A program made the translations under genes and the position numbers. Shown here piece after piece: positions 11,270 through 31,754 of a stretch of 33,700 nt of DNA; position 1 is the stretch's first letter, and each line of letters begins with the position of its first letter. Origin of the DNA: Acidobacteriota bacterium (GTDB lineage: Bacteria; Acidobacteriota; Blastocatellia; RBC074); contig JAGNMH010000001.1 of NCBI GenBank assembly GCA_017991275.1, forward strand, positions 1-33,700, in the 5' to 3' direction. Under the pieces are notes generated by a model. That model saw only the letters and a program-made list of their open reading frames with translations, was not told the DNA's origin and did no database searches.

Positions 11270-11342
11270 CTTTGGTTTGTTGGTAAAGAGTTATGCTTTC
11301 TTCGTGTCTCTTCGTGTATCTTGGCAGAGAACATTTTTCCGG

Positions 11343-23469: not shown

Positions 23470-26400
23470 TTATTCCTTCGTCAGCGTTTCATCCAGATTC
23501 AACAAAACACGAGCGACCATCGCCCAAGGCGCGATTTTTTGCAGATCAATGTCTTCCGGCAGCTCGCTCAAATCCGAACTGGAAACGTAAACTGCCGCCG
23601 CTGTGCGCCCCTTGAAGATTGGTCGCTGATCGGCCAGCAACTTCATCAATGCCTTTAATTCGGATTTGGTAGGTTTACGCCCTGTGCATAGACGAAAACC
23701 GTAAATCATCTTTTCTTTATCGCTTGAGCCGCCTTCTTTCCACATACGCAAACCTAATCCCTGCGCAAATTCGACAAATGTCTGGTCATTGAGAGTGGTC
23801 AGCGCCTGAAGCGGAGTGTTTGAACGTAACCGCCGAGTACAGGAAAAATCACCAATGGGTTGATCAAAAACCAGCATCGAAGGATAAGGCACGTTGCGTT
23901 TCCAGAATGTGTACATCCCGCGACGATAACGGTCTTCGCCCTTGCTGGTAGGCCATGGCATGGCGCTGCCATAGCCAAGACTAAGCACTCCATCTGGAAT
24001 TGGCGGATACACGCTTGGGCCGCCAATTTTGTGGCTAAGCAATCCACTGACTGCCAGCGCGATGTCGCGTATGGTTTCGGATTCCACGCGCAGGCGAGGC
24101 GCGCGAGCCAATAATGAATTAGTGGGGTCTTTTTCCTTCAACTGCGGAGTGACATTTGACGATTGCCGATAAACAGCAGAATTCGCAATCAGCCGATGCA
24201 AATGTTTGAAGCTGCCTCCGCTGTCCATAAATTCCACAGCCAGCCAATCCAGCAGCTTCAAATTCGGAGGTTCGTCACAGCGCATGCCGAAATCTTCGGG
24301 CGTCGAAACCAGGCCTTCGCCGAAATACTGTTGCCACACTCGATTGACTATGACTCGCGCTGTCAGCGGATTCTTTCTGTCAGTGATCCATTGCGCCAAG
24401 CCCAGCCGATTGAGCGGCGCGTCATTCGGAAAAGGGTGCATCAACGCCGGTGTACCGGGGGTCACAGATTCGCCAGGGCGTTTCCAGTCTCCACGACGAA
24501 ATAAATTGGTTTCGCGCGGCCATTGGCGCTGAGCCAGCGTCAATGTCGTCGTTCCGTAAGGCCAATCGCTCAACAAGTCATCAATCTTTTTGTTGGTATC
24601 GCCCCAATCGGCAACTGTCGTGCGATAAAAACTGAAGACTTCGTGTTGCTGCTGCTCTGTTCGTTCGGCAACCGGGATTGCCAAAATGCTGCGCACGTTG
24701 GAAGGCAGCGGGTCGGCATACGGGTTGGCCGCCGTTGTCACAGACAAACGGAAACGCCCAATGTTTGGCTGCGGCGTACGAATCTCTTCGTTGAATCTTT
24801 GAATCAACTGGAATGACAGAGTCGTTCCTCCGTCAACACCGACAGGTTGCGCAGCAGCAAAGACCATCTTGCGATCCTGGTTACGGCTGACTGGGCCGGC
24901 ATCGCTGAACCAGTGAGTTTTCTGGTTGCCATCAATTACATTTTTAATCGGAAAATCCGAGCGTTCATAATCAACCGTCGGATTTTGCAGAGTGATACGT
25001 GTCTGTTTTTCAGGCGCAGAAGCCGGCGCAGCGTCAATCATCAATTCTGAAACGTAAAACTTGCCATCAAAATCCCGCCCCGGCCCGGTGCGTGGCAGGT
25101 TAGGGCTGGTCAGAAATTCCACTCGGAAACCTGTAATGTTTTTAAGCGTAGTGCGCGCTTTGATTTGATAATTGTTCCCGGTCGCATTGTCTCCGCGCGC
25201 CAGAAAAGAACCATCGGGCAACTTCTCAAACTTGACTCCGTAAATGGCGTGGATATCCGTATCCATCAACGGCGCCCACTGGCTTTCGTCGTAAGCCATC
25301 TTCTTTTCCCACTCGGCGATCCGGTCTTTTAAGTCAGGCGTGGCAGCGACCAATTCATTTTCCAGCTTGGAGATGTCTGCTTGGATAAGTTGACGTTTGG
25401 TTGTGATTTTTGCGTCGGGGACTTCCATTTCCGGTTCGTCATCGGAATTCAGGAAGGCGTAAAACTGGTAATACTCTGTTTGCTTGATTGGGTCGAATTT
25501 GTGGTTGTGGCATTGCGCGCATTTAATTGTCAGTCCCAAAAACGCATTGCCTATGGCGTCCACGCGGTCAATCAACCCTTCGACACGGAACTGTTCAGGA
25601 TCAACTCCACCTTCCTGATTGAGCATTGAATTGCGCAAAAAACCTGTGGCGACCCGCTGTTGTAAAGTTGAATGAGGGAGCAAGTCCCCGGCCAGTTGTT
25701 CAATTGTGAACTTATCGAATTTCTTGTCTTCGTTGAAGGCTTTGATCACCCAGTCACGATAAGACCAGATTGAACGCGGCAGGTCTTTTTCAAATCCATT
25801 GGTGTCGGCATAACGCGCAGCGTCCAACCACCAACGCCCCCAGCGTTCGCCGTAATGCTTGCTTGCCAGCAGCCTGTCAATCTGCTTTTCCCAGGCATCG
25901 GGCGAATTGTCAGCCAGAAACTCGTCAATCTCTTTTAGCGTAGGTGGCAAGCCGGTCAAATCCAGGCTCAGGCGGCGAAGCAATGCTTCTTTTGAAGCTT
26001 CGGGCGAAGTGGTCAAACCGCGTTTTTCGATTTCCGTCAGTATGAAGCGATCTATGGGCGTCCGCGACCAGGTCGTATTTTTCACTTCAGGTAAAGCCGG
26101 GCGAACCGGCGCGACAAAAGCCCAGTGCTGCGGAGCTTCGTTCGCCCCGTTGCCTTGTGCAGTCTCGTCCGACCATGCGGCCCCTTCATCAATCCAGCGT
26201 TTGATCAGCGCGACTTGCTCCGATGTCAGCGCAGTTCCGCCCAGCGGCATGCGCTGCTCACCACCCTCCCCAAGAATACGATGAATCAGGCGCGAATCTT
26301 TGCTTGAGCCAGGCTTAATGACCGCACCGGAAAGCCCCCCCTTCATCGCCAACGCCTTTACATCAAGTTTCAACTGGCCAGAGGCTTTGGCTCCGCCGTG

Positions 26401-26556
26401 GCATTTGTAACAACTCGCAGCAAAGATGGGTTGAATATCACGAGCAAAGTCCACCTTTGCCTGTGACCAGAAAGAACGAGCAGATATCCCTGCCAAGGGT
26501 AGCAACAACACACTACAAGCAAGCAGGAGCAGAATTTTTAGCAAACGCGGCTTCAT
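23470..26556 (-). CDS. Exported multidomain protein: cytochrome c (PSCyt1-like) + DUF1549 (PSCyt2) + beta-sandwich insert + DUF1553 (PSD1)
   Basis: Signal peptide and an N-terminal heme motif CYKCH (26398-26412). A DUF1549-like block reads LDLTGLPPT...[24 protein letters not shown] second CxxCH, CAQCH, lies at 25507-25521. There is a central discoidin-like [14 protein letters not shown] segment, and the C-terminal part is DUF1553-like ([18 protein letters not shown]...). Confidence 0.9.
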
Positions 26557-26562
26557 ATTATT

Positions 26563-26638
26563 CAGACTCTATTTGGCCAGACAGACCCCATTTGGCCAGA
26601 CAGACTCTATTTGGCCAGACAGACCCTATTTGGATTGG
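26563..26638 (-). repeat. Tandem direct repeat, 19-nt unit x4, immediately upstream of the PSCyt gene start codon
   Basis: The plus-strand units are CAGACTCTATTTGGCCAGA (26563-26581), CAGACCCCATTTGGCCAGA (26582-26600), CAGACTCTATTTGGCCAGA (26601-26619) and the degenerate CAGACCCTATTTGGATTGG (26620-26638). The array ends 6 nt from the ATG at 26556. Confidence 0.9.
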
Positions 26639-26665
26639 AATTGTTGTTCGTTGTAATCGCAGAAA

Positions 26666-26716
26666 ATTGCGGGCGAATAATTGCATAAGTAATTCGATTT
26701 CACCATTCGCCGCAAT
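26666..26716 (-). terminator. Hairpin starting at the NHL gene stop codon (terminator candidate)
   Basis: ATTGCGGGCGAAT (26666-26678) pairs with ATTCGCCGCAAT (26705-26716), with one bulged base. On the minus strand the stem is followed by TTTTCTGCG. Confidence 0.5.
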
Positions 26717-27813
26717 CATTCCTTTTGTGAATTCAAAATTCGAACTCGGTGCGCTTCGCTGTCTCCAATAAAAATCTTGCCGTTCTTATCCACAAACACT
26801 CCATGCGGACGAGCCAGCGCGCAGGCCAACGGATCGCCATCCGAACCGTTTCCCTTCTGGCCGGTTCCGGCGACCAATTCTATGGTCATTTTTTTTAGAT
26901 CAATCATCCGAATGGAATGGCTTTCGGTGTCGGCCAGATAAACGTTTCCGTTCGGAGCTATGCTCAACCCTTTCGGCCCGGACAATGCAGCCAGCCTCGC
27001 CGGGCCACCGTTGCCCGTGAAGCCTTGCTTGCCGGTTCCGGCGATATGGTGAATTGTCCCGGCTTTCAAATCCAGTTTGTAAACAGCATTTCCTTCTCGC
27101 AAAGCCAGCCAAAGATTTCCTTGCCCGTCGAAGTCAATCGCGCGTGGGCCGTTCAAAGGCGTTCCGGCGATCTTGGCTCCGTCCGGCGTAGCTTTCTTTT
27201 CGCCTGTTCCGGCAAAAGTCGTGATTCCCCCATTCTTCATATCAACCTTGCGAATGCGATGGTTGAGTATGTCGCAGATGTACAAATCACCTTTGTTGTC
27301 GAATTGAATGCTGTGAGGTTGATTCATCTCGGCTTTGGTCGCCGCTCCGCCATCGCCGGAAAAACCAGACTGGCCAGTTCCGGCAATCGTCGTGATGATT
27401 TGAGTCCGACGATCCACCCGGCGAACAACGTGGTTCATTCGCTCGACGACGAACAGGTTGCCGTTTCGGTCAAAGCGCACTTCGTAAGGTTCGTTCAACT
27501 CGGCTTTTGTCGCCGCTCCGCCGTCGCCGGAATAACCTTTCCTGCCCGAACCGGCGACAGTCGTGATCACGCCTTTGCTATCAATGCGACGAACGGCGTG
27601 ATTCATTGTGTCGCAAAAATAGATGGCGTTATCCGGGCCGACGACTACACCAAACGGATTGTTCAACTCAGCATTTGAAGCTTGACCGCCATCGCCCGAA
27701 TATCCGGCCTGACCGGTTCCCGCAATGCTTCTGATTTGAGTTTTCGGCGACTGACCGGCTATGCCGATGACAACCGTGAACAACATCAACGCGATACATC
27801 CGAATCTTTTCAC
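26716..27813 (-). CDS. Secreted six-bladed NHL-repeat beta-propeller protein
   Basis: Six consecutive repeats of about 50 aa follow the pattern G(Y/F)SGDGG.A..A.LN.P..v..d..Gn.y..D..NH..R..d. I chose the GTG at 27813, preceded by GGGAGA, which gives the signal peptide VKRFGCIALMLFTVVIGIAG. The ORF-track ATG at 27891 adds 26 residues before the signal peptide and has no RBS. Confidence 0.85.
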   Translation of the reverse strand: MKRFGCIALMLFTVVIGIAGQSPKTQIRSIAGTGQAGYSGDGGQASNAELNNPFGVVVGPDNAIYFCDTMNHAVRRIDSKGVITTVAGSGRKGYSGDGGAATKAELNEPYEVRFDRNGNLFVVERMNHVVRRVDRRTQIITTIAGTGQSGFSGDGGAATKAEMNQPHSIQFDNKGDLYICDILNHRIRKVDMKNGGITTFAGTGEKKATPDGAKIAGTPLNGPRAIDFDGQGNLWLALREGNAVYKLDLKAGTIHHIAGTGKQGFTGNGGPARLAALSGPKGLSIAPNGNVYLADTESHSIRMIDLKKMTIELVAGTGQKGNGSDGDPLACALARPHGVFVDKNGKIFIGDSEAHRVRILNSQKE

Positions 27814-27927
27814 GCTTTGTTTTCTCCCTGGACAAGATTGGTTTGACCACATTGGAAGGCTGCCATAAGATGCGCGCCATCCGCAACACATCTGAAGTAG
27901 TTCAACATTTCAACCGGAGAAAAGATC

Positions 27928-31650: not shown

Positions 31651-31754
31651 AATGCCATTAACCATTAGCCATTGACCATTAAGCATTATCGGTCAGGGTA
31701 CAAAAGGCTTCCCCTATCGGTTAATGGGTAATGGCGAATGGGCAATGGTTAATT
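31651..31754. repeat. Heptad-phased inverted repeat (CCATT x5 left arm, AATGG x4-5 right arm)
   Basis: CCATT/GCATT cores start at 31655, 31662, 31669, 31676 and 31683. AATGG cores start at 31723, 31730, 31737 and 31744, with a degenerate one at 31751. The arms pair at the cores (9+5+5+5 bp) with 2-nt mismatched spacers. A TATCGGT direct repeat lies at 31687 and 31715. Confidence 0.8.

Follow-up and report, generated by a model that had tools for sequence, protein, structure and literature searches.

The tandem array of 19-nt units which precedes the gene of an exported PSCyt protein is best explained, at a probability of about three in four, as an ordinary lineage-specific slippage minisatellite, grown from the sequence before the PSCyt ATG, nearly neutral, and acting neither as an operator nor as a switch. 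The array lies at positions 26563-26638 on the minus (coding) strand of the window, i.e. the whole stretch of 33,700 nucleotides analysed here, and consists of three good units and an older-looking distal copy. A single copy of its 14-nt core occupies the same site in four relatives of the same genus, and two adjacent cores occupy it in a fifth lineage.

The window is one whole contig of a MAG (G000; 847 contigs, 5.69 Mb, 52% G+C, 83.6% complete). A planctomycete context had been assumed. However, the best relatives of the PSCyt protein come from Blastocatellia/Acidobacteriota MAGs, and the organism is a Blastocatellia acidobacterium. Several close relatives (82-86% protein identity to the gene of the window) have been deposited as 'uncultured Heliomicrobium sp.' or 'Heliobacteriaceae'; their sequences are Blastocatellia-like, and they probably represent mislabelled TPA MAGs.

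The description of the array as four head-to-tail 19-nt repeats ending 6 nt from the PSCyt ATG was confirmed by the sequence, by TRF and by a pattern search. TRF delimited the array to 26563-26633 (period 19, 3.7 copies, 90% matches) with a score of 121, the strongest among the tandem arrays of the window. The pattern search, allowing ≤3 mismatches, returned exactly three units in the window, 0.00 being expected from 100 shuffles. Read along the coding strand, the spacer runs CGATTACAACGAACAACAATT-CCAAT-CCAAATAGGGTCTG, TCTGGCCAAATAGAGTCTG, TCTGGCCAAATGGGGTCTG, TCTGGCCAAATAGAGTCTG, AATAAT-ATG, with ACAATT directly 5' of CCAAT. The start-proximal copy 1 (TCTGGCCAAATAGAGTCTG, 26563-26581) is identical to copy 3 (26601-26619), and copy 2 (TCTGGCCAAATGGGGTCTG, 26582-26600) carries two A>G changes relative to both. 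The degenerate copy 4 (26620-26638), composed of CCAAT and the core CCAAATAGGGTCTG, abuts the conserved leader ATT and departs from the unit at four of its first five bases and at one further position. These relations had been given correctly in the initial annotation. The unit itself is made up of a 5-nt TCTGG linker, missing from copy 4, and a 14-nt core, CCAAAYNGARYCTG; in copy 1 this core sits where the relatives have their single copy. Each unit also contains a near-palindrome, TCTGGCCAAA, which arises at the junction of linker and core and is not present in the single-copy relatives. Since the units abut without any spacers, the unique spacers of similar length that characterise a CRISPR are missing.

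The spacer of 159 nt which accommodates the array is composed of a 49-nt hairpin at the stop codon of the upstream NHL gene, 28 nt of unique sequence, the 76 nt of the array and a further 6 nt; the array thus does fill most of the space left between the hairpin and the ATG, as had been proposed. The upstream gene (26716-27891, minus strand) codes for an NHL-repeat beta-propeller protein, its longest ORF comprising 391 aa, and public gene calls place a 356-aa start at 27786. The hairpin (26667-26715, minus strand; stem of ~14+6 bp, 20-nt loop) follows the NHL stop immediately; its sequence is partly conserved in the congeneric genomes G010 and G012, and its stem is weakened in a strain assembly, L118, described below. 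The unique leader segment AATTTTCTGCGATTACAACGAACAACAATT (26639-26666, minus strand) shows the highest conservation within the spacer when G000, G010, G012 and the metagenome contig L109 are compared. The six nucleotides AATAAT between the array and the ATG (26557-26562, minus strand) have similar counterparts in the relatives (AATAAC-T, AATA-T), which indicates that the start context was left untouched by the expansion. The PSCyt1/PSCyt2 (DUF1549)/PSD1 (DUF1553) gene (23470-26556, minus strand) begins with the ATG at 26556 and encodes an exported protein of 1028 aa; its ATG and its MKPRLLK signal peptide line up with those of the orthologues. A DUF1501 gene and then two PQQ-like propeller genes are located downstream of it, and the plus strand carries a second, divergent pair of PSCyt2/PSD1 + DUF1501 genes.

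Public gene callers place a 53-codon ORF over the spacer on Logan contigs (26558-26719, minus strand). This frame overlaps the NHL stop (ATGA), ends 1 nt short of the PSCyt ATG and is open solely for want of an in-frame stop in the array. In G010 and L109 a stop ends it after 6 codons, and the ORF is therefore judged to be probably spurious. With the units abutting directly and the ORF across them not conserved, the earlier view that the array is neither coding nor a CRISPR still holds. The AGAG of the proximal copy, which had been pointed out as the sole purine-rich stretch near the start codon, is indeed the only purine run near the PSCyt ATG, at a distance of 10 nt. Its equivalents in G010 (CAGAAC) and G012 (CGAATC), however, are not purine-rich, and the motif was rejected as a conserved ribosome-binding site.

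Among 40 relatives searched at the DNA level, G010 and G012 proved to contain the NHL-PSCyt junction, and G001 and G003 the PSCyt start. All four belong to the same genus, and in the alignment each has one core, which follows a conserved ATT and precedes the ATG: ATT-CCAAACAGAACCTG-AATAACT-ATG in G010, ATT-CCAAACCGAATCTG-AATAT-ATG in G012, ATT-CCACATAAAATCAG-GTCAT-ATG in G001 and ATT-CCACATAAAATCAC-AAAAT-ATG in G003. In other Acidobacteriota, none of some 16 upstream regions of orthologues has an array at the ATG. The 90%-identity cluster to which the NHL homologue belongs led to a JGI metagenome contig, L109, as well as to a set of Logan assemblies. In L109, whose NHL gene is about 89% identical to that of the window and about 90% identical to that of G010 at the DNA level, the site contains two adjacent cores with a period of 14 nt and no linker (CCAAACAGAATCTG, CCAAATAGAGTCTT), followed by AATGAT-ATG. 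Of the 14 nucleotides, 13 agree between the proximal core of L109 and the G000 core, and 13 also between its distal core and the single copy found in G010 and G012. Metagenome contigs searched with the start-codon junction and with the conserved hairpin yielded no match, and no identical protein was retrieved for the NHL and PSCyt proteins as translated from their longest ORFs.

The orthologous site thus exists in three copy states, namely one copy (G010, G012, G001, G003), two copies (L109) and four copies (the G000 species), the last of these together with the 19-nt unit containing TCTGG being confined to the G000 species. As G000, G010 and L109 are about equidistant from one another (10-11%), both orders are admissible for the two-copy state: either it is ancestral and G010 lost a copy, or it arose later.

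Some further features of the orthologous loci were noticed in passing. By eye, an apparent tRNA gene on the opposite strand, and not an NHL gene, lies upstream of the PSCyt orthologue at L013 and L014 (G001:C18 and G003:C51). In the same two genomes a TTGCGC-17 nt-TAAAAT arrangement, also recognised by eye, ends 8 nt before the PSCyt ATG; if this were a promoter, the PSCyt mRNA of G001 and G003 would be leaderless or nearly so. Short-period arrays are also found 60-370 nt upstream of the gene at three planctomycete loci with PSCyt-family paralogues (L085:1364-1442, 15 x 5.3; L089:1237-1296, 16 x 3.8; L093:1129-1204, 12 x 6.3), and their units are unrelated to the 19-nt unit.

The array probably originated as follows. 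The 14-nt stretch CCAAAYNGARYCTG immediately 5' of the PSCyt ATG would have been duplicated in tandem through slipped-strand mispairing or unequal exchange; the 5-nt TCTGG linker would then have been acquired and the resulting 19-nt unit reiterated, lengthening the spacer by 57-62 nt. The start-proximal copy together with AATAAT-ATG would have been kept as in the ancestor, and with both of them retained the initiation region of the PSCyt gene would be unchanged. The extra copies would lie in a transcribed leader or in NHL-PSCyt intercistronic RNA, paired with one another in a hairpin of their own, and the expansion, most likely neutral or nearly so, is fixed in the sampled population. Slippage is the mechanism we infer, and the probable near-neutrality of the array is suggested by its lack of conservation. 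A single round of simple duplication, starting from the ancestral sequence, does not account for the TCTGG linker. A 38-nt double-unit duplication, considered for the alternating GGG/GAG pattern, was dropped since it does not fit the linkers.

Other loci of the same genome contain arrays of a comparable kind. TRF detected 430 non-overlapping arrays in the whole assembly, 81 of which combine a period ≥8 with ≥2.8 copies and ≥85% matches; about 35 of these are intergenic as placed by a crude custom gene caller, and their units all differ. In spacers with a gene start on one side and a gene end on the other, 9 arrays lie nearer the start and 11 nearer the end (longest-ORF starts being used), hence arrays are not biased toward gene starts. 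Two further arrays, which were compared with the relatives, end 7-15 nt before an ATG, with the start-proximal copy intact in both. The one at C159:2544-2648 (L103) has an 18-nt unit, present in ~1 copy in G012, 1.8 copies in G010 and 5.8 copies in G000, and its last unit provides a GAAGAGG ribosome-binding site. The other, at C316:2096-2205 (L097), has a 16-nt unit, present in ~2 copies in both G010 and G012 and in 6.9 copies in G000. Both are expansions of the same kind as the PSCyt array. The density of arrays per Mb amounts to 14.2 in G000, 17.5 in G012 (400-kb sample) and 3.3 in G010 (603-kb sample), differences to which the assemblies themselves may contribute; given the similar density in the G012 sample, the idea that G000 is exceptionally array-rich was rejected.

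Several additional observations concern the repeats of this genome. A run of Ns at C159:2350-2450 is flanked by a duplicate of the sequence preceding the 18-nt array and represents a scaffolding artefact, so that the copy numbers of longer arrays in the MAG may be inexact. Arrays with periods of 7, 14 or 21 are in strong excess (178/430 in G000), and their densities are similar in the G010 and G012 samples. A single heptamer (GCGGATT type, canonical AATCCGC) is shared by 40 of the 89 period-7 arrays and constitutes a dispersed heptamer satellite; the heptad arrays of the window (31655-31688 and 31722-31753) use CCATTAA/TAATGGG. The palindrome GTAGTCCCGCCTTMAGGCGGGACTAC is common to a number of longer-period arrays (C466:8333-8471, C101:8911-9347, C635:16-268, C385:7591-7710, C157:3-78 and C796:2821-3036) and resembles a dispersed element of the REP type that has a GTAG end (cf. 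PMC3733652). Meanwhile, a decamer-type unit, TCTTCGTGTA / ACACGAAGAAG, forms short arrays at 11299-11322 of the window and at C142:4516-4547 of G000, and recurs in another Blastocatellia MAG downstream of the PSCyt orthologue (L026:4667-4694).

The 19-nt unit of the PSCyt array, in turn, is unique. At ≤3 mismatches no other match was found in the window, in line with the initial annotation, or in the other 846 contigs. A search of 185,579 species genomes, one per species, returned one single-copy match to the 19-mer, in a Bacteroidota MAG; by our own arithmetic about 4 matches to a 19-mer are expected by chance in 596 Gb, with which this lone match is consistent. The possibility that the unit is a generic dispersed repeat, named earlier as an outcome that would speak against specific regulation, was accordingly rejected.

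The same searches bear on the proposal that the array is an iterated operator, offering four direct-repeat sites to a regulator of the PSCyt operon. Direct repeats of iteron-like length near a gene start, each containing the near-palindrome TCTGGCCAAA, would suit such a role. The near-palindrome, however, was made at the duplication junction and is not found in the single-copy relatives, and no other lineage that has this gene shows the iteration. Nor is the 14-nt core overrepresented in the rest of the genome: outside the array it has 25 matches at ≤2 mismatches, permuted cores giving 26.8 on average, and 23 of the 25 fall inside genes. The genes around the array code for exported propellers and for PSCyt/DUF1501 proteins, with no gene for a regulator or any other DNA-binding protein adjacent to the array. 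A 19-bp period, moreover, does not set successive sites on one face of the helix. The operator proposal, one of three put forward in the initial annotation, is thus highly improbable.

The third proposal of that annotation was a slippage-prone tract conferring phase-variable expression, with inspection of strain variants for copy-number change as the suggested check. Nine independent Logan assemblies from other runs (L110-L114, L116-L119) include the spacer, and in each of them the array has four copies and is identical base for base. Runs that contain the locus include SRR28715692, SRR28715701, SRR26871261, SRR14932585 and SRR14092368. These assemblies represent very close relatives (flank identity of at least 99.7%, a patch in L118 being set aside), and their consensus gives the majority allele only. 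The array and the 6-nt spacer show 0/82 differences from the window in all nine, and 2-32 substitutions relative to the window occur elsewhere in the locus. The absence of differences is not significant even for the most diverged strain (P about 0.31), and selection on the array sequence was rejected as an explanation for it. A separate feature of the locus is seen in L118 (SRR14092368), which differs from the window over 26686-27786, where its NHL gene has 25 substitutions and its hairpin 6; its flanks differ at 1 of 348 nt in PSCyt and at 0 of 698 nt upstream. By its sequence, this tract looks like a recombination patch ending between the hairpin and the array, in a strain that is otherwise almost identical.

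The nine assemblies also settle the question of whether the array was created during assembly. The MAG is fragmented into 847 contigs and its C159 array adjoins an N gap with duplicated flanks, which would make an artefact conceivable; a 76-nt array with a variant copy, reproduced exactly in nine independent assemblies, refutes this, and the artefact may be considered excluded for practical purposes.

A contingency-type tract, in which gain or loss of units would alter the expression of the PSCyt-DUF1501-propeller genes within populations, could be reconciled with the copy numbers of 1, 2 and 4 in different lineages and with the variation of other G000 arrays between species. The nine assemblies, however, come from several run series and agree in both copy number and sequence, which speaks against a rapidly switching tract. 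The array has only three good copies of its 19-nt unit, one of them a variant, and a few imperfect copies of long period are a poor substrate for slippage compared with the known contingency tracts. It is located outside the PSCyt ORF, no -35/-10 pair flanks it, and folding predicts an accessibility of the start that is independent of copy number. What stands of the proposal is the slippage-type duplication, seen in the one, two and four copies of the related lineages; that the tract switches expression is very unlikely.

The effect of copy number on the leader was modelled by folding the spacer and 60 nt of coding sequence with the array trimmed to 4, 3, 2 and 1 copies. The MFE was -58.5, -50.6, -35.9 and -34.4 kcal/mol, respectively, and the mean unpaired probability of positions -12..+3 was 0.61, 0.61, 0.58 and 0.52; G010 and G012, whose leaders naturally have one copy, gave 0.55 and 0.54. 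With this probability so little changed, no effect of copy number on the accessibility of the start is predicted. The extra copies pair mutually into an imperfect 66-nt hairpin (26563-26628, about -24 kcal/mol). The control of ribosome access by a repetitive leader element, the second of the earlier proposals, consequently finds no support in the model, where the extra copies fold on themselves and the start region has an unpaired probability of 0.52 with one copy and 0.61 with four.

The same hairpin could be taken for a functional leader RNA element, an imperfect duplex fixed by selection and serving mRNA stability, cleavage by a double-strand-specific RNase to uncouple NHL from PSCyt expression, or ribosome standby. 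In its favour are the stability of the hairpin, the folding of the whole spacer, which is better than that of shuffles (z = -2.3), and the fixation of the array in identical form in nine assemblies. Against it, the hairpin follows automatically from a unit which carries the TGGCCA palindrome made at the duplication junction, the start region keeps its predicted accessibility, and the identity of the array is not unexpected at the observed divergence. The hairpin is absent from all relatives, which implies that the PSCyt gene works without it. A search of Rfam 15 yielded three matches to microRNA hairpins at 18-19 bits, far from their gathering scores of 70-97, and no family at threshold. On balance such an element is unlikely. 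The more specific idea that the four-copy leader was fixed by selection as a long cis-acting RNA duplex, be it a processing site uncoupling NHL from PSCyt-DUF1501 or a 5' stabiliser, must be rated a little lower still; if it were true, the genus would repeatedly build leader structures by duplicating pre-start sequence, as at C159 and C316.

In the region 26557-26715 neither a sigma-70-like hexamer pair nor a terminator-like site was found, although the sigma-70 model may not cover the promoters of this phylum. A promoter in or flanking the array was rejected, there being no match to the consensus; inspection by eye also showed that the 19-nt period does not generate a -35/-10 pair. The one unique stretch of the spacer that is well conserved is situated upstream of the array, inside which no promoter was seen, and this places the array most likely in transcribed RNA, either a leader or an intercistronic one. 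The conserved segment at 26639-26666 would accordingly be situated upstream of or at the transcript start, or else within an intercistronic transcript.

By itself the array, viewed as a near-neutral minisatellite, matters little. It is, however, a well-documented case of the birth of a short tandem array beside a start codon with the initiation region undisturbed, the series running from one copy through two at a 14-nt period to four at a 19-nt period. It also calls for caution, in that no regulation should be read into arrays of this sort and the public 53-codon ORF should not be trusted. Should the array be found to alter expression, it would be a simple natural instance of a leader evolving through duplication, in an uncultured lineage of acidobacteria.

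Among the known systems of short direct repeats, plasmid iterons and direct-repeat operators are made of tandem direct repeats of 17-22 bp. The PSCyt array is likewise composed of tandem direct repeats within the iteron length range, but it has no cognate Rep or regulator gene, its iteration is not conserved, there are no further sites elsewhere, and its locus is chromosomal, between two genes for exported proteins. Contingency loci, known from Neisseria, Haemophilus and Campylobacter, contain units of 1-8 nt in many perfect copies; their tracts are located in an ORF or between promoter hexamers and vary within clonal populations. With these the array has in common a repeat tract near a gene start which arises or changes by slippage. 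It differs from them in its 19-nt unit with three good copies, in occupying neither of the two positions, and in being invariant in nine assemblies.

Intergenic DNA is in general enriched in short tandem repeats, and around prokaryotic genes the enrichment is only weak (PMC12699852). In Mycoplasma hyopneumoniae, tandem repeats occur in the 5' upstream regions of transcription units, and expression measured by qPCR is reported to differ among genes with variable repeat numbers (PMC5179023). The PSCyt array resembles those repeats in being short, in lying just upstream of a coding sequence and in having a copy number that varies between related genomes. In contrast to the qPCR differences reported there, folding predicts no effect of the PSCyt array on the start region.

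The class to which the array is assigned here is that of the intergenic VNTR or minisatellite loci. Loci of this class are made by slipped-strand mispairing and are used in MLVA typing. The array shares with them head-to-tail units of a length (19 nt) within the VNTR range of 10-100 nt, the absence of spacers, a non-coding position, a locus-specific unit, a copy number which differs at the same site between related lineages, and the lack of a dedicated function. It departs from them in that its unit includes a 5-nt linker not found in the ancestral sequence, and in showing no copy-number polymorphism among the nine consensus assemblies, which makes it a fixed and not a currently variable marker. 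The array is therefore classed as a VNTR-like expansion that is fixed and lineage-specific, as distinct from a demonstrated variable locus.
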